Source: an uncultured Mycoplasmatota bacterium
GTDB taxonomy: Bacteria > Bacillota_I > Bacilli_A > RF39 > UBA660
Length of the DNA stretch: 64,000 nucleotides
Direction of reading: 5' to 3'
NCBI GenBank assembly: GCA_948467605.1
Contig: CAOKET010000002.1
Location: 14,410-78,409 of the forward strand
The notes under the pieces are model-generated. The model was not told the DNA's origin and made no database searches. It saw only the letters and a program-made list of their open reading frames with translations. Numbering within the stretch: the first letter of the stretch is position 1; every line of letters begins with the position of its first letter. Both the position numbers and the translations under genes were made by a program. Below are positions 4,236 to 52,339 of the stretch, in pieces.

Positions 4236-4989
4236 TTAAGTCCCCACCTAATAATGTAACTACATCAATAATTTTATCAAAAAATTCTTTTCTTGATGAT
4301 TCACCTTTATTTATTTCGTTAAAAATTTTACCATCTTTAATAAATATTACACGTGATGCATAACTTGCTGTAAATGCATCATGGGTAACCATTAGAATAG
4401 TTGCCTCAAGTTCACTATTTAGTATTTCAAATCTTTCTAGTAGCATTTTTGCTGACTTAGAGTCTAGGGCTCCAGTTGGCTCATCTGCAAGAACAAGTTT
4501 AGGTTCTGTTATAATTGCTCTAGCAGATGCCACTCTTTGCTTTTGACCACCACTCATTTGATATGGATATTTGTCTAAACAATCACTAATATTTAGTTGT
4601 GCTGCTACTGATTTGATTTTTTTATCAATTTGGCTAAAATTAATATTTTGTATTGATAAAGCAAGAGCAATATTTTCATACGCTGTTAGAGTATCTAAAA
4701 GATTAAAATCTTGAAATATAAAGCCTAAGTATTCTCTTCTAAATTTATTTAAGTCATTTCCTTTTAATTTAGTTATATCAATACCTGATATGTATATATG
4801 TCCAGATGTTACTTTATCGATTGTAGATAAACAATTTAATAGAGTAGTTTTCCCTGAACCACTAGCACCCATGATTGCAACAAATTCACCCTTTTCTACT
4901 TCAAAACATATATTATCAATTGCTTTTGTAAGAGATGATTTATTACCATAATACTTTTCTATATTTTCAACTTTTAAAATATTTTCCAT
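4222..4989 (-). CDS. BceA-type ABC transporter ATP-binding protein
   Basis: Walker A GASGSGKTT, ABC signature LSGGQKQR, Walker B LVLADEPTGALD, H-loop VTHD. Confidence 0.9.
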   Translation of the reverse strand: MENILKVENIEKYYGNKSSLTKAIDNICFEVEKGEFVAIMGASGSGKTTLLNCLSTIDKVTSGHIYISGIDITKLKGNDLNKFRREYLGFIFQDFNLLDTLTAYENIALALSIQNINFSQIDKKIKSVAAQLNISDCLDKYPYQMSGGQKQRVASARAIITEPKLVLADEPTGALDSKSAKMLLERFEILNSELEATILMVTHDAFTASYASRVIFIKDGKIFNEINKGESSRKEFFDKIIDVVTLLGGDLSDVI

Positions 4990-5081
4990 ATATAATATTT
5001 CTCCTTTCCATATACATAATAGAAGAAAATATCATTTTTGTCGTTTTTCTAATATTTCAATAATATTACAATTTTGTAATA

Positions 5082-6101
5082 TTACTTTAAAACTTCATAA
5101 TATCTATTTTTAGAAATTATTATTGATACTTTTGTATATTTATTTTCAGTTGATTCTATTTCTATTTTATGGCCTAATTTTTGACATAAGTTTTTAGCAA
5201 TGAATAGGCCCATACCTGTTGATTTTGTCATTATTCTCCCATTTTTTCCAGTAAATGTTTTATCAAATACTTTTCTTATATCACTAGGTTGTATACCTAT
5301 ACCATTGTCTTCTATAGTTAATATTATTTTATCCTCATAATCATGAGTGTCTATTTTAACATAAGAATTTCTTATTTTTCTTTTATATTTTATACTATTA
5401 TTTATTATTTGGTTTATTATAAATTCTAACCATTTGGAGTCTGTATATATTTTATACTCTACATTTAATACTATTAAATCTATTTTATTTTCTAATAAGT
5501 CATCTTTATTTTTTAATGCCACATTACTAATTATTTTATTTAGTGAAACTTCATTTATAAGATAGTCTTTTTCTGCATTTTCACTTCTTGCATAATATAG
5601 AACCTGCTCTACATAGTTTTCGAGTTTTTTTATTTGTTCTTCATATTTTTTATCAAGAATACTACTATTATTATGGGTCATTAAAACAAGAGATGCGATT
5701 GGTATTTTTACCTCATGAATCCACATTTCTATATACTCCTTAAAATCATTCATTTGTGATTCAATAGAATTTATAAATTCCATCATAGATTTATTTACCT
5801 CATAAAGCGCTTGACATAAAATCTCTCCATCATAAAAGTTAGGTTTATTAATTGTTTCTAAGACCAAGTATGCTTTATCAAGTTTTTCAATATTAGATAA
5901 AAGATTTGTATAAAAGTCTTTTCTTCTAAAATACTCTATTGATAAAATAACTATAATAAAGACAAATAGTATTACTGATGTGACTAATATCAAAGATTTA
6001 TCTATTTTAAATGCTAAAAACATTAATAATAGTACTATATATATTACTAAAAATATAATTATTAAGTATAACTTGTCATTTAAGAATTTTTTTAAACTCA
6101 T
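5082..6101 (-). CDS. BceS-type intramembrane-sensing histidine kinase
   Basis: Two N-terminal TM helices with a minimal extracellular loop. H-box HEVKIPIASL. HATPase G-boxes (DNGIGI, GMGL). The ATGA start/stop overlap with the response-regulator gene indicates translational coupling. Confidence 0.85.
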   Translation of the reverse strand: MSLKKFLNDKLYLIIIFLVIYIVLLLMFLAFKIDKSLILVTSVILFVFIIVILSIEYFRRKDFYTNLLSNIEKLDKAYLVLETINKPNFYDGEILCQALYEVNKSMMEFINSIESQMNDFKEYIEMWIHEVKIPIASLVLMTHNNSSILDKKYEEQIKKLENYVEQVLYYARSENAEKDYLINEVSLNKIISNVALKNKDDLLENKIDLIVLNVEYKIYTDSKWLEFIINQIINNSIKYKRKIRNSYVKIDTHDYEDKIILTIEDNGIGIQPSDIRKVFDKTFTGKNGRIMTKSTGMGLFIAKNLCQKLGHKIEIESTENKYTKVSIIISKNRYYEVLK

Positions 6102-25600: not shown

Positions 25601-26053
25601 TAAATCCATTACTTGTTGTGGTGAAGATGAAAATAATATTGCTACCCCTGTTTGTCTTACTGCATATATGTCTTGGTGATCACAAAAAATTGATAGGGCA
25701 TGGGTTGCGATTGATCTTGCCGCTACATTTATTACTCCTGGTAACATTTCCCCTGCTATTTTATAAAGATTTGGAATCATTAATAGCAATCCTTGGCTTG
25801 CAGTATAAGTACTTGATAAAACACCTGATTGAAGTGATCCATGTACTAATGCAATTGCACCTGCTTCACTTTGCATTTCTATTACTTTTACTTTATCATT
25901 AAAAAAATTAACCTCATTATTACCAGCCCATTTATCAATATGTTCAGCCATAGTAGATGCGGGTGTTATAGGATATATTCCAGCAAGTTCTGTCATCTTA
26001 TATGATATATATGCACATGCATGATTTCCATCCATAATACGGTATTTATTCAT
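22646..26053 (-). CDS. nifJ: Pyruvate:ferredoxin (flavodoxin) oxidoreductase
   Basis: 1135 aa. N-terminal PFOR domain I (YPITPAS). Internal 2x[4Fe-4S] ferredoxin motifs (CIQCNQCSFVCPH, CTGCTHCVQTCP). C-terminal TPP-binding GGDGW. Confidence 0.95.
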   Translation of the reverse strand: MNKYRIMDGNHACAYISYKMTELAGIYPITPASTMAEHIDKWAGNNEVNFFNDKVKVIEMQSEAGAIALVHGSLQSGVLSSTYTASQGLLLMIPNLYKIAGEMLPGVINVAARSIATHALSIFCDHQDIYAVRQTGVAILFSSSPQQVMDLTPVSYLSALKGSLPFINAFDGFRTSHELQKIKMIDLDKIKDLIDEKSLNLFRQKALIPGKKITRGTAQNDDVYFQNLEVRNKYYDNLPDIVEEYMDNINKITGEDYHIFNYYGDKYATKVIIAMGSVCETIKETIDYLNKTGEKVGLVEVHLYRPFSTRHLIKVLPESVKQIAVLDRTKESGSSGEPLYLDVVNTFKDKKIEIIGGRYGISSKDTSPRDIKAVYDFLDSKERFNNFTVGIVDDVTNRSINVDKNFNIPHNSIEMLIYGYGSDGMVSASKNIMKIIGEKTPKFVQGYFQYDSKKSGGVTRCHLRISDNKIHSTYYVNKAKLIVCTKASYLSQFDMLDYIEDNGIFILNSSLSDEECLSLMPSKVKEIIKKKNIRFYIADAYSLSSSNGLGNKISTIMETIILKYLNQIDEKEYISSIKEKVYEEFFNKGEEIVKANNRVIDQALNCIREVKDIVLTSKDNNKQYTDDIIIDSINKMKGNDLPVSAFIDHEDGTYQGGNTVFEKRKISEYVPVWIKENCIQCNQCSFVCPHAVIRPFLLDEEENKNVKDDSLKAIGPDLKDYNFMIGVSYNDCTGCTHCVQTCPGMKGKKALEMVNIHELKQKEQDDYLFNKVKQKDIEKRNNVKYSQFQPPKFKYPGSCSGCGETPYLKILTQLFGNNLIIANATGCSSIYGASLPSTPYSVPWINSLFEDNAEVGYGIYTAHKIMRQRVKKIIEEKLKNNSIKDSSIYKEYIDNFEDMEITNKLSKDLKTFKELESYKEYLIKPTVWCIGGDGWAYDIGYAGIDHILESNENINILVLDTEVYSNTGGQSSKSSRTGSVASFTETGKKTVKKDLAKIAMSHENVFVAQVSLGYNKESVVNIFEEAAKHDGPSIIIAYAPCISHGIKGGMKNALEHQKLAGECGYLPIFKYNPSENKLKLYNKEPDYEKYEEFLNLETRYSMLKLVNQDNAKELLEKNKEIAMKRHNIYKEMSQK

Positions 26054-26174
26054 TTATCTTATTCCTCCTTATATACTAGTATAGTATATAAGATTATTTT
26101 TATCAAAGATTTTTAATAAAATAATTGATAATAATTTTACTATATGATATATTTTTATTATAGGAGGTGCTTAT

Positions 26175-26945
26175 ATGGTTAATAAAATGTCAAATAATTT
26201 TTCTGAGTTTTTACAACATACATCGTTTGATTACTTCTCTAAAGAAAAAGATGAAATACTATCACTTATAAAAGATGAATTAGATGGCATTCTTAAGCAA
26301 ATAAGTATGCTCATTAAATCTTATAATTCTACTGTTGAACTTAAAAAAATTGAGAAAAAGTTTAATAGTATTCTTGATGGAACAAATCCATATATTGATA
26401 ATTTAATTAGAAATAAATATAATTTGTGTTATCAGGAATTATTCTCAAAAATAATAAGAGATGGGGATTTTGCTTTAAAGAGTAATAGATATGAGGCTAG
26501 TTCTGAAAGGCTTAGTGTACTTGAATCAACCCTTGCTAACTATAAATGTAATATAGATAAATCTAAAGAGGCTATTACTAATAAAATAGAAGAAAAAAAC
26601 AGTAATTTTGTTAAAGATTTTATAATTAATAATATATTAGCATGCCTAGAAGATACATTTTATGATATACCATGTAAACAAAATGATGATGCTTATAATG
26701 AAATAGAAAAATACTTAAATAAAACTACTGATATAATTATAGGTGGATTACAGGATATATGTGTGTCTAGTATGGATGATATGAATAATGATGTTTTATC
26801 TTATTTGGAGAATAAAATTAAATTTGAAAAAGGTTATACTAATAACTTAACATTATCTCAACTTTTACAGGCTAAAGAGGCGTTTATTGGTAGTAATACG
26901 AAAAGGCCACAAAAAAAAGGAAATAGGAAAAATATTGCCGCTTAA
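26175..26945 (+). CDS. Hypothetical soluble protein (256 aa), acidic and helical
   Basis: Strong RBS AGGAGG upstream. No recognised motif. Confidence 0.5.
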   Translation: MVNKMSNNFSEFLQHTSFDYFSKEKDEILSLIKDELDGILKQISMLIKSYNSTVELKKIEKKFNSILDGTNPYIDNLIRNKYNLCYQELFSKIIRDGDFALKSNRYEASSERLSVLESTLANYKCNIDKSKEAITNKIEEKNSNFVKDFIINNILACLEDTFYDIPCKQNDDAYNEIEKYLNKTTDIIIGGLQDICVSSMDDMNNDVLSYLENKIKFEKGYTNNLTLSQLLQAKEAFIGSNTKRPQKKGNRKNIAA

Positions 26946-27025
26946 ATAACATTTTTTAATGTTATTTTTATTATTCTTTATTTTTATAGTTAAATGGAGT
27001 ATAATTTTATTAGGAGGAAAATTTT

Positions 27026-29200
27026 ATGAATAGAAATTTATTACGTACTATTGGTATAATAAATATTATATTTGGTATAATTTTTACGCTTACTATTATT
27101 GGTTCAATTATTGGGATTCCATTAATAGTTAGTGGAGCTTTATATTTAGAATATGCATCTTTAGATGATGGAGTTCTTATTGCTAAGAGAAATTCTATAA
27201 AGGCATGGTCTATTATATTTATTTTTATTAATTTTATATCTGCTATTCTTAGTTTTTTAGCACTTAATGATATAGATAAATATATTAAAAAAGATGATTA
27301 TGATCCTAGTAGTTTTAGATTAAATTTCTTACTTAATTTAGGTATGTCTTTAATATTACTATCTGGTATTATACTTGCTAGTACATCTTGGAATTCTATA
27401 TTGGATTATGTTAAAACTATATTATTATTTTTATTTGGTATTATATTTATATTTCTTTCATTTTTATTATCAAAAAGAAAGAGTTTAAAATATACTTCTA
27501 ATACTTATTGGTTTATTGGTTGTATTATTATTGCTATTAGTTTTTATTCTTGTGGATATTTTGAAATATTTGGTTCTTATTTTTCATTAAATGGATTAGG
27601 TAGAAATTTATTTATATCTATTATTTCTTTGATAAGTACTATAATATTTTTCTTATCACATAGAAAATTTAATTCTAAATTCTTATTAGTTACTTCATTT
27701 ATTAGTTTTTTTGTTACCTTATCATATTTAATATCTTATTTTACAAATAATATACAAGTATTCTCAATAATATTTATGTTAGTATTAACTATATTTAATA
27801 TAATCAATGTTAATACTAAGGATTCTAAAAAATATTTTATGAATTTATGTAATATAATTACATGTATATATTTTATATTTATTTTTATATTAAACATCGC
27901 TACATCTGATACAATACTTATGCTTATAAATAATATTTTATATGTTTCAAATTTATTTATATTGTCTTTTAAAACTAAGTTAAAAAGGTTTAATATATTT
28001 ATTATTATTGCACTTCCAATACTTATATTACTTTATTGTTATAAATTCTTATCATTTAATGTAGCAATAATAAGTAGTTCTATAGCAATATTATTATTTT
28101 ATGGTATATCTTATATATTTAAATCTAAGAATTATATACTTGTATCTGGTATTATAATATCAAATATACTATTATTTATTAATTATATAATTTCTTATTT
28201 TAGTGATTACTTCTATTTCCCTCTTATTATATCTATTATGTTAATTCTTATTTATATTCCACTTATTTTTATAAATAACTATATGAATAAGTATTTGGGC
28301 GAAATTATTGTTCAACCAATTAAAGCACTACTTTTATGTATTTCATCTAGTTTTCTTTTAATTAATTGTGGATGGTCTTTTGGATTTATGTCTTATATAG
28401 TAGTTTGTGCTAATATATTATTTATATTTAGTTTAATAAACAGGAATAGTATATTAAGAAATATTTATTTTATATTATCTTATTCACTATTATTCATGTG
28501 TTTAATACCAATAAATATTAATATAGTATTTCGTATAAATATAGTTGTTATGTGGATACTTGGTTACTTAATAATAACTATGTTCGATAAGAATAATTGG
28601 CTAGGTCCAGTTAACTATATATTTTATTTATTTAGCTTAATAACTTTGTTCTCGCTATTTAAATATTTAAGTTTTTCTATCCAACTTTCTTTATTAAATA
28701 TACTTATATATTTATTCCTTGCTTATTTATTTAGAAATAATAGATTTAAATGTTTTACTGCACTTGTATTTCTCTTATTACCATATTACTCTTTAATAAA
28801 TATATTAGATATAAGTTCTTCTGTACTTCATATTCTTAGATTTGCACCTTACATTTTATATATATATTTATTTACATATACTATTACTAGAAAATATAAT
28901 ACTTTAAATATTATATTAGAAATCGTTGTTAGTTTACTAGTATTTATTATTCTAGTTTTTGAAGGTTCAATTGAAGTATCCATATTTGTATTGATATGTA
29001 GTATAATTATGATTATATACGATGCATTGTTTAAACATATTTCTTTGTTTATTAATGGTCTAGTAGCATTAATCCTAAATATTTTGATAAATATATTTAA
29101 GTATTGGTCTGTTATTCCAGCATGGTTATATTTACTTGTAGGCGGGATTGCTTTGATAACAATTATTACTATACAGGAGTTAAGAAAAAATAAAAATTAG
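27026..29200 (+). CDS. Very large polytopic membrane protein (724 aa, about 20 predicted TM helices), unknown function
   Basis: RBS AGGAGG. Almost entirely hydrophobic helices with short loops. Confidence 0.5.
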   Translation: MNRNLLRTIGIINIIFGIIFTLTIIGSIIGIPLIVSGALYLEYASLDDGVLIAKRNSIKAWSIIFIFINFISAILSFLALNDIDKYIKKDDYDPSSFRLNFLLNLGMSLILLSGIILASTSWNSILDYVKTILLFLFGIIFIFLSFLLSKRKSLKYTSNTYWFIGCIIIAISFYSCGYFEIFGSYFSLNGLGRNLFISIISLISTIIFFLSHRKFNSKFLLVTSFISFFVTLSYLISYFTNNIQVFSIIFMLVLTIFNIINVNTKDSKKYFMNLCNIITCIYFIFIFILNIATSDTILMLINNILYVSNLFILSFKTKLKRFNIFIIIALPILILLYCYKFLSFNVAIISSSIAILLFYGISYIFKSKNYILVSGIIISNILLFINYIISYFSDYFYFPLIISIMLILIYIPLIFINNYMNKYLGEIIVQPIKALLLCISSSFLLINCGWSFGFMSYIVVCANILFIFSLINRNSILRNIYFILSYSLLFMCLIPININIVFRINIVVMWILGYLIITMFDKNNWLGPVNYIFYLFSLITLFSLFKYLSFSIQLSLLNILIYLFLAYLFRNNRFKCFTALVFLLLPYYSLINILDISSSVLHILRFAPYILYIYLFTYTITRKYNTLNIILEIVVSLLVFIILVFEGSIEVSIFVLICSIIMIIYDALFKHISLFINGLVALILNILINIFKYWSVIPAWLYLLVGGIALITIITIQELRKNKN

Positions 29201-30960
29201 TTATTTTTTCTTTTTTCTTCTTTTATGCCAAATGACAGGCAAAATATAAATGGATATATATTTATAAATGGTAAACAGTATCTACATATTGATTTTGGTA
29301 AACTAATAAATAGTAAAGCATACCAAAACAATATAAATAATATAGGTAATAAAAGGTTATATTTTCTTTTGTTTATGAGTATTAATACTGAAAAAAGTAG
29401 CATAAATAAAGGAAAGGCACCTCTTGTTCTTAAATCAAATAATACACTTTTTAATCCAAAATTCACAATATTGTCTACAATACTATTTAATTTAGTTTCT
29501 TTATACATAATAGTAGTTTGTTTTAAACAATAGTTATATGCATTGGGTTCCCATGAATATTTATATAGATAAGTAAAATACTCATTATTGTCATTTTCTA
29601 TTTTCCATAAAATATTACTCAAATCAAATAAAGATCTCATATAAAATATTGGTTTTTTTATAAACAAACTTAAGTTAATACCAATTAGACCACTATAATT
29701 AAATGTTTTACTTTTTCCTCCAGATAAATAAAATAATTTTTCATCATTTATTCTTGCTAATGCATCTCCATCATTCTTTTTAAAACTAGTTGCCATATAT
29801 TCTATAGGTAAATATTGTTCTAAATATTCTTTTTCAATGTCACTAAACTCATATCCAGAATTAGCAAAAGCACCTATTTGATAAATTGGAACAGTATATG
29901 GAACGCTCTTAAAATATGTATCAGAATGCAAAATATTAAATCCAATGTAGTTTATAATAGAATATGTACTTACAAAACCTATTACTACAATTCCAATATA
30001 TATCAATTCAAAGTATTGCTTTTTCTTTAAAATAATTATGAATAAACTTAGGAATATGAGTATTAATAAGTAAAGTGTTCCATGTCTAAATAAAATCATA
30101 ATTATTGAAAATATTACCATATTTATAACTATTTTTTTTGTAAATTTTTTTATTGTAAAGTACTCTACCATTGTTAAAATAAAAATACAAAAGCCTAGTG
30201 AAAATAATGTATCTTTTAAAATATACCTTAATTGATCAAATCCTACTATTGTAAATATATTTATACAAAGGAATAAAATCAAAATATTTTTATTTTTTGT
30301 TTGTCGTTCTAAAATTTCAAGAGAATAATTACAAAAGTAAAGATAGAGTATAAAATTTAATATAATTACTAAATATGTATTATTAAATACAATTTTACAA
30401 AAATGAATTAGCATTCCAAACCCAAACGTATGCCAATTGCTCCACCAGCCATCATTACCTAAGTGCCATATGTCTGGAAAATCAACATCATAAAAACCAG
30501 TTGATGTACTTGCAATAAAAAGCAAACTAATAATAGTAATTATTGACATTATTATTACTCTAATTTTTTTATTGTTAGTACTTTCTTTAAATTCATATGA
30601 AAAAATTGATACAAATATATAGAATAAAGATAAAAATAAAGATGATAAAAAAATAGTTTTAAACATTATATTAAATAAAGTTATGTTGTTTGAGAATTTA
30701 TTTAAGCATGAAGTGATAGGTAACATTATAAAAAATAATACACATAATGATATTGACATTACTACTATTTTTCTATTTAATTTTATATTCATAATAAAAG
30801 ACCTTTTTATAACTAAAAAAAGTTCAAATATAGCAATAATAAGTAATGGCAAAAATATTAATTCATTAGATATATTATGTAAATTAAATAAACAAAAAAC
30901 GATTGAAATAACATTAATTATTAATAATATATAATAAAAACTTTTTTTCACTACTATCAC
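29197..30960 (-). CDS. Polytopic membrane protein with a C-terminal extracytoplasmic domain (GT-C/YfhO-like topology; function unknown)
   Basis: 587 aa. Multiple N-terminal TM helices, a roughly 170-aa soluble segment, then further TM helices. It converges on the preceding gene with a 4-bp overlap. Confidence 0.4.
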   Translation of the reverse strand: MIVVKKSFYYILLIINVISIVFCLFNLHNISNELIFLPLLIIAIFELFLVIKRSFIMNIKLNRKIVVMSISLCVLFFIMLPITSCLNKFSNNITLFNIMFKTIFLSSLFLSLFYIFVSIFSYEFKESTNNKKIRVIIMSIITIISLLFIASTSTGFYDVDFPDIWHLGNDGWWSNWHTFGFGMLIHFCKIVFNNTYLVIILNFILYLYFCNYSLEILERQTKNKNILILFLCINIFTIVGFDQLRYILKDTLFSLGFCIFILTMVEYFTIKKFTKKIVINMVIFSIIMILFRHGTLYLLILIFLSLFIIILKKKQYFELIYIGIVVIGFVSTYSIINYIGFNILHSDTYFKSVPYTVPIYQIGAFANSGYEFSDIEKEYLEQYLPIEYMATSFKKNDGDALARINDEKLFYLSGGKSKTFNYSGLIGINLSLFIKKPIFYMRSLFDLSNILWKIENDNNEYFTYLYKYSWEPNAYNYCLKQTTIMYKETKLNSIVDNIVNFGLKSVLFDLRTRGAFPLFMLLFSVLILINKRKYNLLLPILFILFWYALLFISLPKSICRYCLPFINIYPFIFCLSFGIKEEKRKNN

Positions 30961-31026
30961 CTATTAGTATTATATAAAATTAATTATTAGTAGTAAATCA
31001 ATTTTTGTTTATTATATCAATTATTT

Positions 31027-31722
31027 ATGTTAATATTATTATATGGTGATTTTATGAATATTAATAAAAAAATAAAGGCAGTATTAGTTATATTACTATA
31101 TTTCTTATATACGTCTGGTTTATATATGATACCTATATATATATCTGGTGTATCTGTTGCTGTATTTGATAAATTTTGGTTGTGTGTGTATTTTTTTACT
31201 GCAGATATTCTTCTTATGTGTATTCTTGGTATTATATATAATAAGGAAGTTATAAATGGGTTTAAGTCTCTTACACTTCCAAAAATAGAATTTGGCGTTA
31301 AGGTATGGATTATTGGGATGATTATAATGGGTATTAGTAATATGCTTATATCTAATTTTAGTCCTGTTACTGTTGCTGGAAATGAAGAAAGTGTAAAAAA
31401 TGCTTTATCAATATTACCTATTTATATGGCATTTTCTACTGTACTTTATGCTCCTTTTGTCGAAGAAATTGTATTTAGACAAACTCTAAGAGATATATTT
31501 AAAAATAATACACTTTTTATAATTTGTGCTGGATTATTATTTGGTGGTATACATATAATGGACTTTTATACCTCATATTATGATTTATTATTTGTAATAC
31601 CATATGGCGCGCTTGGTGTTTGTTTTGCATACATATATTCTAAGACTAATAATTTAACTATATCAATGATATTACACGCTATTCATAATGGGCTTTTAGT
31701 TGTTTTATTCTTCTTATTTTAG
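31027..31722 (+). CDS. CPBP-family intramembrane metalloprotease (CAAX protease / Abi bacteriocin self-immunity family)
   Basis: Motif 1 EExxxR (PFVEEIVFRQ), motif 2 FxxxH (LLFGGIHIM), motif 3 HxxxN (HAIHNGL). The start may be the internal MNINKK. Confidence 0.75.
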   Translation: MLILLYGDFMNINKKIKAVLVILLYFLYTSGLYMIPIYISGVSVAVFDKFWLCVYFFTADILLMCILGIIYNKEVINGFKSLTLPKIEFGVKVWIIGMIIMGISNMLISNFSPVTVAGNEESVKNALSILPIYMAFSTVLYAPFVEEIVFRQTLRDIFKNNTLFIICAGLLFGGIHIMDFYTSYYDLLFVIPYGALGVCFAYIYSKTNNLTISMILHAIHNGLLVVLFFLF

Positions 31723-31731
31723 GAGGTATTA

Positions 31732-32577
31732 ATGAAAAAGATTATTATTACAATAGTTATTACAATTATATTAATAACTAGTATATTATTATGGAGCAGA
31801 TATATAAGTACTAGTGGTTTAATTGTAAAAGAATATAAAATAGAAAGTAATAAATTACCTCAAAGTTTTCATGGGTTAAAGTTAGTTCATTTTTCTGACT
31901 TACATTATGGTAGAACAGTTCATGAGAAAGAATTAAAGGATATTGTAAATAAGATTAACTATTTAAAACCTGATATTGTAGTTTTTACTGGTGATTTAAT
32001 TGATAATGACACGGTTACTACTCCTGAGGTTAGTAATATATTAAAAAAATACTTAAGTATGATTGATGTTAAAATAGATAAATACGCTGTTGTTGGAAAT
32101 CATGACTATAAGAATAATTACTATACTAGTATTATAGAAGAAAGTGGTTTTATATTACTTAATAATAATTATGATATTGTATATAACGGAAATTATAAGC
32201 CTATATTTATTGGTGGTATTGGAAATTATACTTATGGTAAAAGTGATATTTCTTCTACTATGAGTTATTTCAATAATGAGAATAATGATTTATATAAAAT
32301 AATTCTAGTACATGAACCTGATATATTAGATGAATTAACTAATTATAATATAGATTTAGTACTTGCAGGACATTCTCATAATGGACAAGTAAGATTACCT
32401 TTTATTGGTGTGGTAGTTAAACCAGTTTTTGCTGAAAAATATTATGATGAATATTATAAAGTTAAAAATACTAATTTATACATATCAAGTGGTATTGGTA
32501 CTTCTACTATAAACTTTAGATTTCTTAATAAACCATCTATTAATTTTTATAGATTTGTAAAAACAAAAGTGGAATAA
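31732..32577 (+). CDS. Calcineurin-like metallophosphoesterase (YkuE-like), membrane-anchored
   Basis: GDLID, GNHD, GHSHNGQ metal-binding motifs. N-terminal TM. RBS AGGAGG. Confidence 0.8.
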   Translation: MKKIIITIVITIILITSILLWSRYISTSGLIVKEYKIESNKLPQSFHGLKLVHFSDLHYGRTVHEKELKDIVNKINYLKPDIVVFTGDLIDNDTVTTPEVSNILKKYLSMIDVKIDKYAVVGNHDYKNNYYTSIIEESGFILLNNNYDIVYNGNYKPIFIGGIGNYTYGKSDISSTMSYFNNENNDLYKIILVHEPDILDELTNYNIDLVLAGHSHNGQVRLPFIGVVVKPVFAEKYYDEYYKVKNTNLYISSGIGTSTINFRFLNKPSINFYRFVKTKVE

Positions 32578-32596
32578 TTACTCCACTTTTATTTTT
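32568..32596. terminator. Bidirectional intrinsic terminator between convergent genes
   Basis: AGTGGA-ataattac-TCCACT hairpin with T-runs on both strands. Confidence 0.45.
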
Positions 32597-33633
32597 GCAC
32601 ATATTATTGAATTTATATTTTCTATTAATTCACTGTTTATTATTTTACTAGATATTTCATCATCATATAAAAATATACCTATTACTTTTACCCGTATACT
32701 TTCTATGTTATCTTTTAATTCTATTATTTCATTTAATTTTGGTTCTACTGTCATTACAAGTATATCTTTTAATCCTTCTTTTACATCTTTAATATCATTT
32801 ACTAAATATATTTTTCTGTCATATTCATCTAAAAATGAATATCTTTTTTTATCTTTATGGTATCCCACTATTGTATTAATATTTACATTTTCAGCAGATG
32901 TAAATATATTTCTATCTATATTTTTATTATTAAAACTTTTAATTAGTTGCTTCATTTCTTTTCTTTTTGAAATATTTTCTTTATTGGTTTCTATATTTTC
33001 AGTAAATTTACATGCACAGTTTAGAAAGGTTAATTCATTGTTGTTTTTCCAAGCAATTATTGATTGTTCTCTTACTAGATATAAAGGCCTTATAAGTTCC
33101 ATTCCCTCAAAATTATCACTATGTAGTTTGGGCATCATTGTTTTAAACTCTGCACCATAAAATATACTTAATAGTATTGTTTCTATTACATCATCATAGT
33201 GATGACCAAGTGCTATTTTATTGCATCCTAATTCTTTTGCCTTACTATATAAATATCCACGCCTCATTCTTGCACATAAATAACAGGGATTGCCAGTTGT
33301 TAGTGTAGTTACTACACCAAATATATTTGATTCAAATATTTTAATTGGTATATTTAGAACTCTTGCATTCTCTTCAATTAAATCTCTATTTCTTTTTGTA
33401 TATCCTGGATCCATTACTATAAATTCTAAATCAAAATTCACTCTACCATGCCTTTTTAATTCTTGCATGCATTTTGCAAGTAAAAATGAATCTTTTCCAC
33501 CAGACATACATACTGCTATTTTATCATTTTCTTCAATTAGTTTATAATTATCTATGGCTCTTACAAATTTACTCCATATTTCTTTTCTATATTTTTTTAT
33601 TATACTTTTTTCTATTTCTCTATATTTTTCCAT
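32578..33633 (-). CDS. PP-loop ATPase of the TtcA/tRNA-thiolation family with a C-terminal extension
   Basis: PP-loop CMSGGKDS, plus CYLCARMRRG (CxxC) and NCACKF cysteine motifs. 351 aa, about 60-80 aa longer than typical TtcA. Confidence 0.7.
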   Translation of the reverse strand: MEKYREIEKSIIKKYRKEIWSKFVRAIDNYKLIEENDKIAVCMSGGKDSFLLAKCMQELKRHGRVNFDLEFIVMDPGYTKRNRDLIEENARVLNIPIKIFESNIFGVVTTLTTGNPCYLCARMRRGYLYSKAKELGCNKIALGHHYDDVIETILLSIFYGAEFKTMMPKLHSDNFEGMELIRPLYLVREQSIIAWKNNNELTFLNCACKFTENIETNKENISKRKEMKQLIKSFNNKNIDRNIFTSAENVNINTIVGYHKDKKRYSFLDEYDRKIYLVNDIKDVKEGLKDILVMTVEPKLNEIIELKDNIESIRVKVIGIFLYDDEISSKIINSELIENINSIICAKIKVE

Positions 33634-44794: not shown

Positions 44795-45334
44795 TTAATC
44801 ATTTAATTCATATTCTTTTATTCCACAGTTAGTTGTTCCAAAATTATGTAACATTCCATCTTTAGGAATTTCATTAAAATAAAAATATACACCTCTTGAG
44901 ACTCCACCATGTGTTACTAGTAATATGTTTTTACCTTTATATTTTTCTTTAATCTCATCTATAAAGTTCCTTACTCTTTTGAATAAATCTGGGATAGATT
45001 CTAAACCATCAACTGATGCGGTTGAATAATAATTCCAGTAATCTGTATAGTAAAATTCACCTAAATCTTCATTAGTTAGTTTTCCACAATTTCTTTCCTC
45101 TAATCTTTCATCATAAATTACAGGTATATTATTTTTATTTATAATTTCGCAAGTATGCCTAGTTCTTAATAATGGAGAACATATTATTAAATCAATATCT
45201 AATGATTTAACTTGTTCACTTACTTTTTTTGCTTGTTCTATACCAACTTCATTTATATCTTCGTCTAATGTACCATTATATTTATTTTCTTTATTACAAT
45301 TTGTCTGTCCATGTCTTACTACATATAATTTCAT
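44795..45334 (-). CDS. Histidine phosphatase superfamily (phosphoglycerate-mutase-like) protein
   Basis: VVRHGQTNCN (RHG catalytic motif), plus the second His in VTHGGV. Confidence 0.8.
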   Translation of the reverse strand: MKLYVVRHGQTNCNKENKYNGTLDEDINEVGIEQAKKVSEQVKSLDIDLIICSPLLRTRHTCEIINKNNIPVIYDERLEERNCGKLTNEDLGEFYYTDYWNYYSTASVDGLESIPDLFKRVRNFIDEIKEKYKGKNILLVTHGGVSRGVYFYFNEIPKDGMLHNFGTTNCGIKEYELND

Positions 45335-45353: not shown

Positions 45354-46577
45354 TTATTTTAAGTTCCAATTTTTAAGGTTATACTTTTGACTTTTTTTCA
45401 ATATTTCTATTTGTTTTTTTATTTCTAATATATCATCTTCATTAAATGGTTCAAACTTGTCATAAAATCCTGTAGATTTATTTGGAAAAACTAATGCTTC
45501 TCCAAAGGTTTGTGTTACTGAATTTTTAACTCTTCCGTATAGATGGAGATGAAAAATAGGTTTTTTATTTTTTTGATATGCCCAATTACCATTTTCTTGA
45601 TAGTTTATTTTTTCAATATTTATGCCTCTAATTTTCATTGCTTCTTTCATAGATTCTCCTACTAGCATTGTTAATCTCATTAACTCTATTGCTAATTTTG
45701 GTGTAAAATCACATCTACTTTCAAATAAAGGCGCTTTTGCTCTTATCCAAAGATGACCACCATCTGTTCTTGGGATATGTGGTATTTTAGGCACTGCTAC
45801 TACAAAGTTTTCTGTCTCATAAATTATATTGTCATGAAACCTACTTATATTATTATCTGTGCTTCCATTTTTCAATAATTGATTAAGTTTATCTGGAAAG
45901 TTTACTGTCATACCATCGATGTCCAAATTGTATACCTTTTCCATTATCTCTTCATTATCTATTCCCCATAACCTGATACTTAATCCATTCCTTCTCACTA
46001 ATTCTATATCGCTTTTTGAAATATTATTTGAATTAGGACAAATCTGATTTCCATTTATACTTAATAATTCACTTATTTTATCATTATCTATCTTATCAAC
46101 TAACCATGATATTTTCACATTATTATCTATTTGCCTTATATTTCTTAATACTTCATACTTAAATGATGATATATAAATATTATCATGTTTTTTATATTTA
46201 TTAATTATGTCTAATACTTCTTTTTCTATTCCTAATACTTTTAGTTCTATTGCAAATGTTAGATTTTTGTTTAAAAATTCTTTAGCAAAGTCCTCAAATA
46301 AAACTATATGCTCACCTTCATATTTTTTGTCAAACCAACTTCCAAAATCTAGATTTTTTAATTCCTCATATGTATAATCTTTTAGTTTACCAGTACCATT
46401 TGATTTTTTATCTATTAACTTATCATGAAAAATTACTATTTTTTTGTCTTTCGTCATTTTTAAATCTAACTCTATACCATTTGCTCCTAATTCTATCGCT
46501 TTTTTAAAAGCGGAAAGTGTATTTTCTGGTGCATATGAAGAGGCTCCTCTATGTGCATAATTAATAAAATTAGTCAT
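45354..46577 (-). CDS. Glycerophosphodiester phosphodiesterase (GDPD) domain fused to a C-terminal HIT-like domain
   Basis: N-terminus: YAHRGASSYAPENT...ELDLKMTKD...FHD (GDPD). C-terminus: FVVAVPKIPHIPRTDGGHLWIRAK and HLHLYGR (HIT histidine triad H-phi-H-phi-H-phi-phi). Confidence 0.6.
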   Translation of the reverse strand: MTNFINYAHRGASSYAPENTLSAFKKAIELGANGIELDLKMTKDKKIVIFHDKLIDKKSNGTGKLKDYTYEELKNLDFGSWFDKKYEGEHIVLFEDFAKEFLNKNLTFAIELKVLGIEKEVLDIINKYKKHDNIYISSFKYEVLRNIRQIDNNVKISWLVDKIDNDKISELLSINGNQICPNSNNISKSDIELVRRNGLSIRLWGIDNEEIMEKVYNLDIDGMTVNFPDKLNQLLKNGSTDNNISRFHDNIIYETENFVVAVPKIPHIPRTDGGHLWIRAKAPLFESRCDFTPKLAIELMRLTMLVGESMKEAMKIRGINIEKINYQENGNWAYQKNKKPIFHLHLYGRVKNSVTQTFGEALVFPNKSTGFYDKFEPFNEDDILEIKKQIEILKKSQKYNLKNWNLK

Positions 46578-46779
46578 TACTTTCTCCTAACTTTTCAATA
46601 TTTGATTTGTAAAACTCTTGCTCTTCTTTATCTGTCCAATCAAACATACCATCTCTTACCCATTTTGTTTTATCTATGATTCCAGTATTTCTTAAAGTCT
46701 TATCATGTTTCAAGTATTCTTTTACTAAAAATTCTTCAAAATTTGATATTACATTATCTATGTCTACACCTATTCTCAT
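46570..46779 (-). pseudogene. N-terminal fragment of a 5'(3')-deoxyribonucleotidase (NT5C/HAD) family protein
   Basis: MRIGVDIDNVISNFEEF resembles the NT5C start MKIAIDMDEVLADF. Only 69 aa, overlapping the next gene. An intact paralog-like gene lies at 54653-55219. Confidence 0.35.
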
Positions 46780-46835
46780 TTATTACCACCTTATTTTAAG
46801 TATATCATAAACTAAAAAAAAGACCTAAGTCTTTA

Positions 46836-49183
46836 CTAATTATTTTGTAAAGCACGGTCTAATTTTGTTTTAAATTCATACCTTTTATTTATATTAAATA
46901 CTGATATTTGTTTAGATGAAAACTCTAATTGTTCTGGTATACTTTTTCTATCTAATTTATAAACTTTTACTTTTTCAAAAAACTCGTTTATAATATTATA
47001 TATTTTATTACTATTATCAATTAAATCTTCTGTTGAAATATTTCTTAACATACAGAATAAGTAATAGTAATTAGAAAGAGGAATATATGCATAGTTGCTC
47101 ATTGCAACTAAATCTCTAAGAGTTTTGTTTAATTTTGTTAAGAATAACTCTATTTTTTCATAAAAGTAAAGTGTTTCATCGATAGAATCTAAATAATTTT
47201 GTCTTTCTTTTTTAATTATATCTATATCTTTATACATGTATTTATCTTTTATTTCATTAAATTCTTTTAACCATTTACTTATTCTTTTACTGTCATAGTT
47301 TGAATAGTTTATACTTTCTAGATCTTTTGTATAAAATAAATATGATAATTTTAAAGTCGTTACTGCTGCAGTGTTATTTTTATTTTTCTTTGGTAAAATA
47401 ATTCCCATATACTTACTTATTTTTTCTTCTAAATATTTTATAATTTTAGCATCCATAGTAAGACTCCACATTCTATATGTATCTTCTTTTATAATAGACT
47501 TGTTTCTATTTATTCTTACATATTGATCTACTGCACTAAAACTACTATTTTCACTTTGACTAGTTGTTGATATTTTTAATTTAGTATTCATTATTTTATT
47601 AATGTAATCTTTAGAAATCTCATTTTCTTTTTTATTTGATTCATATTTTAGTCCATTAAGTTCAGTTAATATTCTTAATCCTTTTAAGGTATATCCATTT
47701 TTATTTGAATATTCTTCCTCACCTAATTCGTTCATAAATGGTTGTTGTAAAAATCCAAGCAAGCTTAAAATTCGCTGTTGGCCATCTACAATCTCGGTTA
47801 TCATGTTACCATTTTCAAACCTATCACACATTAATATATATGGTATTTTTATTCCCAGTAATATACTTTCTATTATTCTAGATGCTAGAACAGTATTCAT
47901 TACCTCTAATCTTTGATAATATGGTCTTACATTGTGACTACCTGTTTTTACTTCTACTAATAAATCAGATATTTTCATTTCCTTTGTAGTAAAACTAAAG
48001 TGTTTTCTGTGGAGTTCTTCTATACTGTTTATAATATCTATATTATTATTTATACTAACATCTTGTCTAAAATAATTACTCATATCTATGCCATACTCTT
48101 TTTCATAGTATTTTGCTACTACATAATATTTATTATATATATCCTTTTTATAGTGTGCTCTATTTGGATTAAAGTTCTTTTGCGTTTCTTCAATCTCACC
48201 AAAATATTCTAAGTATTTCATAAAATCAAACTTAAATGGATCACTAAGTTTATCTTTCCTTATAATAGATATCAACCAATATGTTGCATCTAAGAATGGT
48301 TTTGAATGAAGAATTTCATAATTATTCCATTTTTGGGTATTTACTAAATTAGTATATATTTGATTAACATTTATTATAAAATCTTGATAAATAGTATCCT
48401 TATTAACATTAATTATATTTGGAAGATAATTTTGTTCTATTCTAGTTTCAATATTATATGTCGAACAGAAATTATACATATTTGAGTAAGTAGATGCGAT
48501 TAACAATCTACAGTTTAATAAAATATTATCAATCTTATTACGTTTTTTCTTTCCATTAAAAAATCTTAATGCCTCTAATTCTTTCATAAATTCTTCATCA
48601 TTTTCAATTTTCTGTTTTATTTTACTAGTAATTTTATCCGATGCGAATTGTGCTTTTTGCATTTCTTCTATTAATAGTCTAAGTCCTGTATTATATATTA
48701 CATATAAATATTTTTCTACTTCTATTTCTTCGTCTTCATTTAAAATACTTTTACCCATTTTTACGTTATTATAACTATAGTCTAATACCTTAATAGGATC
48801 ACATTTAGAAAAGTATTGTTTTTCTATATCTGATAAAGTACTATATTTTTTACCAGATAGGAATTTAAGTTGCTTCAAACCTCTTTCATCTAATATAAGT
48901 TCATCATTATAAAAACTTTTCATTGCTAAAAATCTGTTATAGCCATCTACTATTATAGTATGATCGTTGTTTTTAAATCTTATTATTGGTTGCATAGAAC
49001 AATGTAAAAATATACTTTCTATATAACTAGTCTGTACTATTCTATTCCATTTTTTATCATTCTCAAATGGTCTTTCTATTAAATTTATTGTTTCATTTCC
49101 ACAGATTGAACACGGTGTTACATCGTGTTCATCACATATTAGATTATTTGCGATTAACGCTCTTAAATCAATTTCATCATTCA
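46836..49183 (-). CDS. Large protein with tandem DUF262 (ParB/Srx-like NTPase) domains and no recognisable nuclease domain
   Basis: Second domain canonical: RPYYQRLEVMNT...ITEIVDGQQRILSL (DGQQR). First domain degenerate: W...IESIFLHCSMQPIIRF...IIVDGYNRFLAM. N-terminal CxxC...CxxC. No HNH/DUF1524 motif seen. The start is MNDEID, with RBS GGGGGA. Confidence 0.65.
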
Positions 49184-49244
49184 TTAAAATCCCCCATTTC
49201 TTTAAAATGATTTTATATGTTATCATATTTGCTGGAGGTGATAA

Positions 49245-49258
49245 ACCGCATATATGCG
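49245..49258. promoter_or_regulatory. Perfect palindrome CCGCATATATGCGG in the divergent XRE / DUF262 promoter region
   Basis: Read directly from the sequence. It lies between RBS-like GGAGGTG and the XRE start codon, which makes it a candidate operator for the adjacent HTH regulator. Confidence 0.4.
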
Positions 49259-49264
49259 GTATTT

Positions 49265-49495
49265 ATGAATAAAGAGGAAGCATTTACTAAAGTTTTAAGG
49301 GTTTTAAGAAAAAAGAAAGGAATGACTCAGGAAAAACTTGCAGAAAAGTCATCAATTAATGAGAAATATTTTGGTCAAATTGAGCGAGGAAAAAGTATAC
49401 CTTCTTTAACAAAATTTTTCAATATATGTGATGCATTAAAATTAAAACCATCTGAAGTTATGAATCTTATCGAAGAATTGATAGTTAAGTATTAA
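49265..49495 (+). CDS. XRE-family (Cro/C1-type HTH) transcriptional regulator
   Basis: MTQEKLAEKSSINEKYFGQIERGKSIPSLTKFFNICDAL is a classic HTH_3. The start codon is uncertain (49217 or 49265). Confidence 0.7.
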   Translation: MNKEEAFTKVLRVLRKKKGMTQEKLAEKSSINEKYFGQIERGKSIPSLTKFFNICDALKLKPSEVMNLIEELIVKY

Positions 49496-50969: not shown

Positions 50970-51707
50970 TTATTCTCTAAATAATTCATTTTGCATTTTA
51001 TCTGGATTTTCTAAGAACATTTTATATACTTGATATATTTCTGTATCTTTATAGTTTATTTCATTAAAATTATTATTTAAATCGTATATTATACTATTCC
51101 TGTATGCGATTAAAATTGGAGAATGTGTTGCAATTATGAACTGGCTTCCATTTTTAACTAAATTATCTATTAAACTAAGCAAAGTCATTTGTCTTATTGG
51201 TGATAATGCTGCTTCTGGTTCATCTAAGATATAAAGTCCGTTATCAGAAAATCTATTTTGAACTACTTTTATAAATGCTTCTCCATGTGAACACTTATGT
51301 AAATCCCCTCCATAATATCTATATATTGGTAATGATTCTTCACTAATTTTTTCTATTTCAGTTGCCACATTGTAAAAACTTTCTGCTCGTAAAAAATACT
51401 TAGTTTGTGGTACTCCTAGTTTACTTACTTTTAGATATTTATATAAATCGGAATGAGTATTATTTGTTTTAAAATTAAAGTTTTGTGTTCCCCCTTCTGG
51501 ATTTAATCCACAAGAAATTGCTAGTGCTTCTATAAATGTTGACTTACCTATACCATTTTCACCTATTAAGAATGTAACTGGTGAAGTTAATCTTAACTCA
51601 TCAAAATTTTTAATTATTTCTATATTAAATGGATATATATCAAAATCTTCTATCTTTTCTTTATCAAGTCTTATATTATTTACAAATAAACTATTATCAC
51701 GTTTCAT
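50970..51707 (-). CDS. Small stand-alone ABC-type (AAA_21-like) ATPase
   Basis: Walker A GENGIGKST, Walker B LYILDEPEAALSP, H-loop IIATHSP. 245 aa, no transmembrane partner. Confidence 0.6.
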   Translation of the reverse strand: MKRDNSLFVNNIRLDKEKIEDFDIYPFNIEIIKNFDELRLTSPVTFLIGENGIGKSTFIEALAISCGLNPEGGTQNFNFKTNNTHSDLYKYLKVSKLGVPQTKYFLRAESFYNVATEIEKISEESLPIYRYYGGDLHKCSHGEAFIKVVQNRFSDNGLYILDEPEAALSPIRQMTLLSLIDNLVKNGSQFIIATHSPILIAYRNSIIYDLNNNFNEINYKDTEIYQVYKMFLENPDKMQNELFRE

Positions 51708-51715
51708 TATTCCAC

Positions 51716-52339
51716 CTATAAATTAAATTTTTTATTATAATTATTTATATAATTAGGAAATTTATTAAACCAATTATCAAATTCATTCACATAATCAAAT
51801 TGATATAGTTTATACTCCCCAGTATTCGTACATCTTTTAAACTTTAGATTTAAAAAACTTTCTATGAACTTTTGTCCATCACTTGTTTGACCTTCTGCAC
51901 ACATATTTAAAAAGAAAATATTTCTACTTTGTAAATGTTTTATTTTTTCATAAAGTCCTTTTAATAATAAACTTAGTATTGTTCTATCGCTTCTATAGTT
52001 TTTATCTATTGCAATTGTTGAAAATAGTAGATAATAGTTGTTGTTATCTTCATAATTTATTAAAGTATTTTCATTAATATCAGTATCTTCTAGATTATTA
52101 TTCATAAAATCAGTAAACTGTTTTTCTGATAATGGTAATAGTGTTATTTCTCCTACTATTTTATCAATATCTAGGTTTCTTACAAATATATGTATGTCAT
52201 GATTTAGTTCTTCCCATTTTATTGTTTGTTCTATGCTAGCAATAGATTCATCATTTAAGTATTCTTTTTCAATGTAGTACACATCTTCGAAATCTTTATC
52301 TTTGTGTTTATATTCTAATCTATATTTCATAATTATCAC
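51716..52339 (-). CDS. Hypothetical protein, possibly GNAT-fold
   Basis: LLFSTIAIDKNYRSDRTILSLLLKGL weakly resembles GNAT motif A. Low confidence. Confidence 0.3.
   Translation of the reverse strand: MIIMKYRLEYKHKDKDFEDVYYIEKEYLNDESIASIEQTIKWEELNHDIHIFVRNLDIDKIVGEITLLPLSEKQFTDFMNNNLEDTDINENTLINYEDNNNYYLLFSTIAIDKNYRSDRTILSLLLKGLYEKIKHLQSRNIFFLNMCAEGQTSDGQKFIESFLNLKFKRCTNTGEYKLYQFDYVNEFDNWFNKFPNYINNYNKKFNL

Follow-up and report, generated by a model that had tools for sequence, protein, structure and literature searches.

Introduction

What does a DUF262 protein do that carries two copies of its domain in one chain, ends without a nuclease and is transcribed away from a small regulator gene? 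DUF262/ParB-type nucleoside triphosphatases (NTPases) are the DNA-sensing heads of GmrSD, BrxU, SspE, Menshen, Dazbog and PD-T4-2, and the question is raised by a locus in a 64-kb stretch of DNA from an uncultured Mycoplasmatota bacterium (the window; all coordinates are positions in it unless a locus is named). The region holds two divergent genes, a tandem-DUF262 gene on the minus strand and an XRE-family gene on the plus strand (Table 1). The large protein is probably a new variant of DNA-sensing phage-defence proteins, and the cassette is best explained as a self-contained, horizontally mobile two-gene unit of the defence-island kind. Related loci, cited as L001 to L210, are fetched database contigs with genes of the family.

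A first-pass annotation, made from the letters alone, had recognised the large gene correctly and overstated its length at 787 amino acids (aa). The longest reading of the open reading frame (ORF; 46836..49226, minus strand) has 796 aa from its first ATG, but this in-frame ATG, at 49226, lies inside the promoter −10 element described below and is unlikely to be a start codon. The ATG at 49184, which gives 782 aa, is almost certainly the real start. It is preferred because a GGGGGA Shine–Dalgarno sequence stands 5 nt upstream, because the protein then begins MNDEIDLRAL where homologues all begin M-x-x-E-I-D-L-R, and because a 100% identical database protein of 782 aa (P0001) is present on several gut-metagenome contigs. 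The 76-aa call for the XRE gene matches the annotation on the twin contigs L001 and L002; an N-terminal extension is not conserved.

Two DUF262 modules in one chain

The C-terminal half of the large protein is readily classified. Pfam finds one GmrSD_N (DUF262) domain (aa 420–574 of the 796-aa ORF, E 7.6e-12), and PADLOC returns NsnA as its sole model (aa 395–752 of the 796-aa ORF, about 381–738 of 782; E 1.1e-22). This match spans positions 27–350 of the 385 in the NsnA profile. Neither NCBIfam nor a PDB sequence search gives a match. The motifs P-Y-Y-Q-R and DGQQR of this core are invariant among 52 homologues.

The N-terminal half had been proposed to hold a second, degenerate copy of the domain. 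Its motif I reads FENDKKW instead of YQRxxxW, motif II DGYNR and motif III IYNTG; the core has kept the fold and the D-G-x-x-R skeleton, but QR is gone from motif I and QQ from motif II. Its kinship with the C-terminal core emerges at several levels. The two halves align by BLASTP (E 5e-5), and their profiles align by hhalign with a probability of 98.5 and E 2.8e-15 over 134 columns; profiles built only from 28 close homologues that share the degeneracy still reach a probability of 90 and E 1.7e-6. Distant collinear homologues (24–29% identity) have the canonical YQRNYVW, DGRQR and RYNSG at the positions of FENDKKW, DGYNR and IYNTG in the window protein, and distant full-length homologues give two Pfam GmrSD_N stretches. 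The DNA itself retains a trace of the duplication, between 47766–47792 and 48927–48953, which are 1161 nt or 387 codons apart. By these sequence comparisons the second, degenerate DUF262 domain is real, and the profile alignment bears out what had been proposed for the first half.

The degenerate module is not a relic by the measure of conservation. In the close clade, mean pairwise identity is 57% for the N core, 56% for the C core, 58% for the N-terminal helical domain and 40% for the C-terminal helical domain, the N-terminal helical domain being the most conserved part and the C-terminal one the most variable. Because the degenerate core matches the intact one in conservation, the N-terminal module is maintained by selection rather than decaying.

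A confident AlphaFold2 model from a 52-sequence alignment (predicted local distance difference test, pLDDT, 89.4; predicted template-modelling score, pTM, 0.84) has beta strands solely in aa 15–138 and 399–543, the remainder being helical. Foldseek matches the model to ParB-CDP, SspE, Noc and sulfiredoxin, and the matches in BFVD are viral GmrSD_N proteins; structural neighbours also include KorB, PadC and pNOB8 ParB-N, the latter two deposited as 'ParB-like nuclease domain' proteins.

The 'Cys4 element' that had been read at the N-terminus (C17, H20, C25, C28) was considered as a zinc site and rejected, its residues not being conserved in homologues of 55–61% identity. In the model, this region lies within the strand and helix that come first in the chain, at the N-terminal edge of the first core. 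Multi-copy DUF4379 zinc ribbons do occur in some relatives of 1,090–1,208 aa, as a separate N-terminal addition.

No nuclease and no linked effector

No nuclease domain is found in the large protein by Pfam, PADLOC, the AlphaFold model or fold searches, in keeping with the first impression that an HNH motif is missing. Since the strands of the model are confined to the two cores, it has no room for a beta-beta-alpha-Me or PD-(D/E)xK fold. A diverged DUF1524/HNH hidden in the C-terminal 300 aa was likewise not found; the C-terminal region is all-helical and matches the ParBDB part of the NsnA profile. Nuclease-bearing relatives have a classical HNH in an extra ~90 C-terminal aa, past the point at which the window protein ends (aa 815–860 of 864 in P0117, aa 1047–1091 of 1094 in P0100). 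Outside the NTPase motifs, no metal-binding nuclease motif is conserved among the homologues.

Nor is an effector apparent nearby. The 64-kb window has nothing homologous to the fused HNH modules or to the two families of partners described in the next section. The neighbouring phosphoesterases, to which the first-pass annotation had looked for an effector, are no better placed: seven other loci with XRE and tandem-DUF262 genes lack the GDPD, His_Phos and HD genes, which are dropped as partners because the flanking genes differ everywhere and the stop codon of the large gene is followed by a hairpin resembling a terminator. Two His_Phos_1 genes do occur at an eighth locus, L210, where they stand on the side of the XRE gene. 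A His_Phos_1 gene thus lies within three genes of the cassette in 2 of the 8 close-clade loci with a divergent XRE gene (window 44795–45334, minus strand; L210 2356–3608, minus strand), on opposite sides, which is probably a coincidence.

A 245-aa ATPase gene (50970–51707) was considered as a counterpart of NsnB and likewise set aside. It is a generic match to 127 PADLOC ATPase models (AriA, PtuA, NsnB and others), has no DUF3696 tail, lies three genes upstream and is absent beside the cassette in other loci.

The tandem-DUF262 family and its wirings

The suggestion of a new DUF262 architecture holds for the tandem layout, but the layout is not unique to the window. The family is defined by full-length collinear homology across two DUF262 cores ~385 aa apart, which the window protein displays. 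An exhaustive HMMER search over 1.84 billion cluster representatives gives 230 cluster proteins at E<=1e-30, and about 84 full-length ones stand among the matches listed (50%-identity representatives). The full-length ORF is intact in all homologous clusters found. When the 84 listed representatives are sorted by N-terminal motif II and length, the N core of 68 reads DG[RK]QR, the canonical form, half of these proteins measuring ~755–805 aa and half 822–1095 aa with an added domain; the other 16 have a non-canonical or unmatched N-terminal motif II, mostly DG-[YLFV]-N-R, and all 16 are short and without an added domain. Databases annotate the family merely as 'DUF262 domain-containing protein', and 'two', 'tandem' or 'double' DUF262 has no occurrence in the searchable literature. 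Genome and metagenome scans with the family alignments are dominated by generic DUF262 patterns, mostly from distant relatives; the close-clade loci were fetched individually.

The tandem core is found in three wirings: with a fused C-terminal HNH or other domain, with a co-directional upstream partner gene, or, as in the clade of the window, with neither. One family of partners, present in Photobacterium, Myroides and others, consists of putAbiC-like membrane proteins of ~400 aa (PF16872, phrog_8999). Judged from gene order and sequence, the putAbiC-like gene and its tandem-DUF262 neighbour look like an undescribed two-gene system. Partners of the other family have ~450–506 aa, are unrelated to the putAbiC-like proteins and share the conserved stretches 'FDIVYIDACGS' and 'NYNNEFFFQGS'; they have no Pfam, PADLOC or PHROG match, and PADLOC gives no matches for the partner proteins of either family.

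Other additions also occur. Tandem-DUF262 proteins of 946–1016 aa in L097 (1281–4331), L098 (208–3048) and L100 (595–3528) have non-HNH C-terminal additions, the tails in L097 and L098 being alike and that in L100 different. In L013, a 1208-aa DUF4379/tandem-DUF262/HNH gene is followed (3906–5983) by a gene for a 441-aa protein with weak AbiH and SIR2 matches and by a nucleotidyltransferase–HEPN pair, which is a defence-island context for the nuclease-bearing branch.

The cassette across loci

A divergent orthologous XRE gene lies upstream of the tandem-DUF262 gene in every close-clade locus fetched (the window, L005, L015/L016, L175, L176/L177, L208, L209 and L210). The XRE proteins are 35–61% identical to that of the window, the flanking genes are unrelated between loci, and no third gene was found to be conserved across these 8 loci. 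Two deeper members (L178, L006) have a co-directional helix–turn–helix (HTH) gene instead of the divergent XRE. The regulators of L175 (4370–4882, minus strand) and L209 (3344–3868, minus strand) have 170–174 aa with two tandem XRE HTH domains, a covalent 'dimer', and the operator there is more degenerate.

Several of the cassette loci are defence islands. The neighbours are a type I restriction–modification (R-M) system and Fic in one locus; DpnII, AIPR, a group II intron reverse transcriptase and Cas9–Cas1 in another; AIPR, an AAA_14/DUF4143 ATPase and NOV_C in another; and HipA in yet another. No close-clade members were found in viral contigs, phage records or plasmid records.

The regulator and the divergent control region

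The XRE protein belongs to Pfam HTH_3 and resembles the controller (C) proteins of R-M systems: 'Control_protein' models are among its top PADLOC matches (E 7.5e-12), and its best PDB matches are C.BclI (E 1.9e-7), C.AhdI (E 4.7e-7) and C.Esp1396I (E 2e-4). The first-pass annotation had placed a palindromic operator at this divergent regulator, and the palindrome is indeed a conserved cis element in the orthologous loci. In the window it is the perfect 16-bp ACCGCATATATGCGGT, situated between the GGAGGTG box (49234–49240) and the ATG of the XRE gene (49265). Its counterparts are TCCGCATATATGCGGT in L208, ACCGCATATATGTTGT in L176 and, with a symmetric compensatory change (C:G to T:A), ACCGTATATATACGGT in L015/L016. 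In L005 it is ACCGTATATTTACGGT, with the sole non-palindromic base in a 4-nt loop, and L210, L209 and L175 have recognisable half-sites.

The same alignment columns suggest a promoter for the large gene. A −35-like TTATCA abuts the palindrome (TTGACC in L005), a spacer of 16 nt (16–17 nt across loci) leads to a conserved extended −10, TGATAACAT, and the Shine–Dalgarno box and ATG follow. The centre of the palindrome would lie near −42 of this putative promoter. Class II activators bind at this position, as do C proteins at the operator from which they activate. In L176, where the XRE gene starts ~80 nt further off, the spacing between the motif and the DUF262 gene is unchanged, which favours a DNA operator positioned for the promoter of the large gene.

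The −10 element lies within a near-palindromic sequence, ATATGTTATCATAT (49215–49228), in which an extended −10 can be read on either strand, as TGATAACAT or as TGTTATCAT. To go by its sequence, TGTTATCAT could be the plus-strand extended −10 of the XRE gene, and the overlap could make the two divergent promoters mutually exclusive.

Proposed mechanism and alternatives

On balance, and with moderate confidence, we favour the reading that the large protein is a pseudo-dimeric DNA sensor in a single chain, gated by NTP and under a C-protein-like switch, with an output that is direct or given in trans. Known relatives provide the basis for this. BrxU and SspE are intertwined homodimers, and mutations in DGQQR abolish defence in HEC-06 (bioRxiv 10.1101/2024.01.29.577857); NsnA has been proposed as the DNA sensor of Menshen (PMC12065111). 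Because BrxU, SspE and ParB act as NTP-controlled homodimers (bioRxiv 10.1101/2024.01.29.577857; PMC10952713), two linked cores suggest a single-chain pseudo-dimer. By analogy with the family, the large protein may also sense modification and depend on NTP. From such resemblances we infer an anti-phage role, the sensing of DNA, gating by NTP, action as a pseudo-dimer and the direction in which the large gene is regulated.

In the proposed scheme, a dimer of the XRE protein would bind the 16-bp palindrome, which lies in the 80 bp of control region between the divergent genes. Centred ~42 bp upstream of the putative DUF262 transcription start and abutting the −35, it would set the expression of the large gene, either by activating or by repressing; it might just as well cover the −35 of the DUF262 promoter. 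The same site lies in the 5′ leader of the XRE gene, where a bound dimer would block transcription of that gene and so limit the regulator's own synthesis. As for the large protein, its C-terminal module would be a catalytically intact NTPase of the NsnA/GmrS type with a DNA-binding helical domain, and the whole chain would have one active and one regulatory nucleotide site. Under the control of NTP it may sense or clamp foreign DNA, possibly modified, through its DUF262 and helical domains. Since no effector is linked to the gene in the clade of the window, the output would be either direct, by NTP-dependent occupation or occlusion of invading DNA, or handed to an unlinked factor.

A more far-reaching version seems unlikely: the nuclease-free pseudo-dimer would be a complete stand-alone immune effector that closes on invading DNA or spreads along it, blocking replication or transcription without cutting, and the C-protein-like control would be a bistable switch with one operator shared by two overlapping divergent promoters. 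To our knowledge, a stand-alone output would be without precedent, since all DUF262 defence proteins characterised so far act together with a nuclease or another effector.

Several further observations weigh against the favoured scheme. We know of no phage-defence phenotype for any member of the tandem-DUF262 family. Profile comparison detects no sequence similarity between the two helical domains, and the pseudo-dimer symmetry therefore concerns the cores only. The palindrome, which had drawn attention as a perfect one at the XRE start, is real at 16 bp but is not by itself beyond chance: the window has 13 perfect palindromes of at least 14 bp where 15.6 are expected, and a GC-rich palindrome arises in 40% of simulated windows. 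The significance of ACCGCATATATGCGGT thus derives from its conservation in orthologous loci and not from rarity within the window. A consensus sigma-70 scan of the control region gave no site of at least 9/12, with overall counts at chance, so that the promoter call draws on cross-locus conservation only. The immediate neighbours of the cassette in the window are housekeeping genes (dapA, ispF, GDPD), and its defence context is accordingly borrowed from the orthologous loci. Finally, the palindrome can form an RNA hairpin in the XRE leader.

This last point leads to the proposal that the palindrome is mainly an RNA hairpin that bridges GGAGGTG and ATG and exerts translational control rather than being an operator, which we consider quite unlikely. 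Four loci do share the order GGAGGTG, 4–6 nt, palindrome, 4–7 nt, ATG, the hairpin is predicted in all four of these GGAGGTG-bearing leaders, and L005 departs from the palindrome only at one base of the 4-nt loop; yet the fold energies are unremarkable (z-scores −0.4 to −1.5). In L176/L177, L210, L209 and L175, moreover, the motif or half-site stays by the DUF262 −35 while the XRE start is elsewhere, and the tandem double-HTH regulators of L175 and L209 fit a DNA target of two half-sites. The hairpin and operator roles are compatible and not mutually exclusive.

The remaining alternatives concern the large protein. It may be only a sensor or switch in a split system, its effector (a nuclease, a membrane AbiC-like protein or an ABC ATPase) being encoded elsewhere and acting in trans. 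Sister clades always couple the tandem-DUF262 core to a fused HNH or an adjacent partner, and the effector is a separate domain or protein in GmrSD, SspE, Menshen and PD-T4-2 alike (PMC12065111, PMC10952713), but the 64-kb window has no HNH-domain or partner-family homologue and the eight close-clade loci with a divergent XRE share no third gene. As defence systems are normally inherited as linked units, and the nearby 245-aa ABC-type ATPase is generic and absent from other loci, a split system appears rather unlikely. That the large protein is itself toxic through its ParB/DUF262 site, as a nickase or nuclease, activities claimed for some ParB-like 'nuclease' domains, or as a hydrolase depleting NTP or dNTP, and serves as an abortive-infection toxin checked by an XRE repressor, is improbable. 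Control of the C-protein kind does suggest a product that is dangerous if mis-expressed, PadC and pNOB8 ParB-N carry 'nuclease' in their deposited names, and the DUF262 domains of BrxU and SspE hydrolyse all NTPs (PMC10952713). Cleavage in GmrSD, BrxU, SspE and HEC-06, however, maps to DUF1524 and not to DUF262 (PMC10952713; bioRxiv 10.1101/2024.01.29.577857), relatives in need of a nuclease have acquired an HNH domain, and there is no conserved metal-binding nuclease motif beyond the NTPase motifs.

It is equally improbable that the gene has no immune role, being either what remains of a decaying tandem-DUF262-HNH restriction gene or the gene of a ParB-like protein that organises DNA or regulates (compare DndB, KorB and Noc), beside an ordinary local XRE repressor. 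The degenerate N-terminal NTPase motifs, the absent effector and the metabolic neighbours in the window would suit such a gene, as would the fact that ParB-fold proteins are also regulators (KorB) and act in nucleoid occlusion (Noc). Against decay stand the intact full-length ORFs, a degenerate domain as conserved as the active one, invariant C-terminal motifs, and a conserved operator and promoter; the cassette is also found at varied chromosomal sites, beside R-M, Cas9 and AIPR genes, and no parA or parS-like partner is seen.

Genomic setting and other features

The window is part of the low-GC (~25%) chromosome of an anaerobe, with genes for PFOR, HtpG, phosphoketolase, dapA and ispF. It has no tRNA genes, and no flanking repeats indicative of an insertion were found. 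Features of the cassette and of the partner genes are collected in Table 1; the hairpin behind the large gene has only 2 G-C pairs and falls below the scan threshold.

Table 1. Coordinates of the cassette, its control elements, the domains of the large protein, and partner genes at related loci
Feature	Position	Strand	Basis or remark
Tandem-DUF262 gene	46836..49184	-	782 aa + TAG stop; identical protein P0001
N-terminal degenerate ParB/DUF262 core	48675..49151	-	aa ~12-170; hhalign, alignment, AlphaFold2 secondary structure
N-core motif II DGYNR	48933-48947	-	aa 80-84; alignment
First all-helical domain	48030..48674	-	aa 171-385; AlphaFold2 secondary structure, conservation
C-terminal canonical ParB-DUF262 NTPase core	47460..48002	-	aa ~395-575; Pfam GmrSD_N, PADLOC NsnA
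C-core motif II DGQQR	47772-47786	-	aa 467-471; invariant columns
C-terminal all-helical domain	46839..47459	-	aa 576-782; inside NsnA profile (ParBDB-like)
Terminator-like hairpin AAAGAC-TTAG-GTCTTT + T run	46814..46835	-	read from sequence; directly 3′ of tandem-DUF262 stop codon
Putative tandem-DUF262 promoter	49217..49244	-	conserved alignment columns
−35-like TTATCA	49239-49244	-	abuts palindrome
Extended −10 TGATAACAT	49217-49225	-	conserved
GGAGGTG Shine–Dalgarno-like box	49234..49240	+	24 nt upstream of XRE ATG; conserved in window, L208, L005, L015
16-bp perfect palindrome ACCGCATATATGCGGT	49245..49260		putative XRE operator; conserved in orthologous loci
XRE-family HTH regulator gene	49265..49495	+	76 aa; Pfam HTH_3, PADLOC Control_protein, orthologues in 8 loci
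putAbiC-like partner genes	L008 3670-4893; L019 2439-3638; L099 242-1486		upstream; ends overlap or abut nuclease-less distant tandem-DUF262 genes
Partner family 2 genes	L010 4545-5969; L017 3442-4962; L095 1281-2798; L096 2509-3858		upstream

Downstream of the tandem-DUF262 gene come a 69-aa ORF and then the GDPD, His_Phos and HD genes. The 69-aa ORF (46570–46779, minus strand) has its own Shine–Dalgarno box and runs into the start of the GDPD gene. The first residues of its product (MRIGVDIDNVI...) are similar to those of a 185-aa HAD-like protein encoded beside the cassette in L015/L016 (3399–3956), and the ORF may be a truncated gene. The GDPD gene (45354–46577, minus strand) encodes a phosphodiesterase domain (aa 9–230) followed by a C-terminal extension of ~170 aa with 'FHLHLYGR', a HIT-like HxHxH; Pfam, which has no match to the extension, does not confirm a GDPD–HIT fusion.

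On the other side, 50970–52339 (minus strand) encodes the 245-aa protein mentioned above, a minimal ABC-type ATPase (AAA_21/AAA_15) overlapping the ispF start, preceded by a 207-aa ORF without a Pfam match. These two genes may form a small, independent ATPase-based module, and they do not accompany the DUF262 cassette at other loci. Further away, the stretch at ~26000–33000 has the lowest GC content of the window (18–24%) and a switch of strand and GC skew, and its ORFs are mostly membrane proteins or proteins without a Pfam match, including a weak DUF2157 match, an Rce1-like CAAX protease and a metallophosphoesterase; this stretch may be an island.

Significance

A single-chain protein with one intact and one degenerate site would offer a convenient asymmetric model of how NTP turnover is coupled to sensing and effector action, comparable with degenerate-site ABC proteins. 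The same sensor occurs with three outputs (a fused HNH, an adjacent partner, none), which makes the interface between sensor and effector testable by comparison. If the solo form defends alone, it would represent a cleavage-independent mode of DNA-targeting immunity, and the layout of XRE gene, operator and overlapping promoters would extend C-protein-type control past classical R-M systems. DUF262 systems are already known to be polymorphic; the tandem form is worth an experiment and is not startling.

Comparison with known systems

A close relative is NsnA of Menshen (Millman 2022; Li et al. 2025, PMC12065111). The C-terminal half of the window protein matches the NsnA profile almost end to end, and both are nuclease-less, with a DUF262 and a helical DNA-binding (ParBDB) domain. 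NsnA proteins can gain extra N-terminal sensor domains (PMC12065111), but the N-terminal addition of the window protein is a degenerate DUF262 module, which is not among the NsnA-N types in the text of that paper. Unlike Menshen, the window locus has no downstream NsnB (ABC ATPase + DUF3696) or NsnC, and the gene is under a divergent C-protein-like XRE regulator.

With the type IV restriction enzymes GmrSD, BrxU and SspE the window protein shares the DUF262 NTPase motifs (QR...W, DGQQR, F...N); in contrast to these and to HEC-06, it has no C-terminal DUF1524/His-Me nuclease and has two DUF262 cores per chain, the first degenerate, where they have one per subunit. PD-T4-2 (DUF262 protein A and HEPN protein B; Vassallo 2022) provides a precedent for a nuclease-less DUF262 protein that relies on a separate effector. 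The PD-T4-2_A profile matches the N-terminal half of distant family members (E 1e-16 to 1e-21), whereas the window protein has no match at E<=0.1; the window locus also has no adjacent HEPN gene, and its architecture is tandem. No Dzb model of Dazbog (DzbAB), where the DUF262 protein DzbB adjoins DzbA, is among the PADLOC matches of the window protein, its relatives or the partner genes.

The ParB CTPase clamps (ParB, Noc, KorB) have the same ParB/Srx N-domain fold with its nucleotide pocket. The window protein differs from them in having neither an HTH/parS module (no HTH Pfam match) nor a C-terminal dimerisation domain; there is no ParA partner near its gene, and its two N-domain-like cores are covalently linked, one of them degenerate.

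Regarding control, the comparison is with the R-M controller proteins C.BclI, C.AhdI, C.PvuII and C.Esp1396I, to which the XRE protein of ~76 aa is homologous. Their C-boxes comprise two GACT-N3-AGTC operators 4 bp apart (PMC2647307), whereas the cassette has one palindrome, 16 bp long and unrelated in sequence; the gene under control is divergent here and co-transcribed downstream there, and the cassette includes no methyltransferase or restriction endonuclease. What the two have in common is a palindromic site beside the −35 and in or near the leader of the regulator's own gene, an arrangement that permits control of a potentially toxic gene to be combined with autoregulation.

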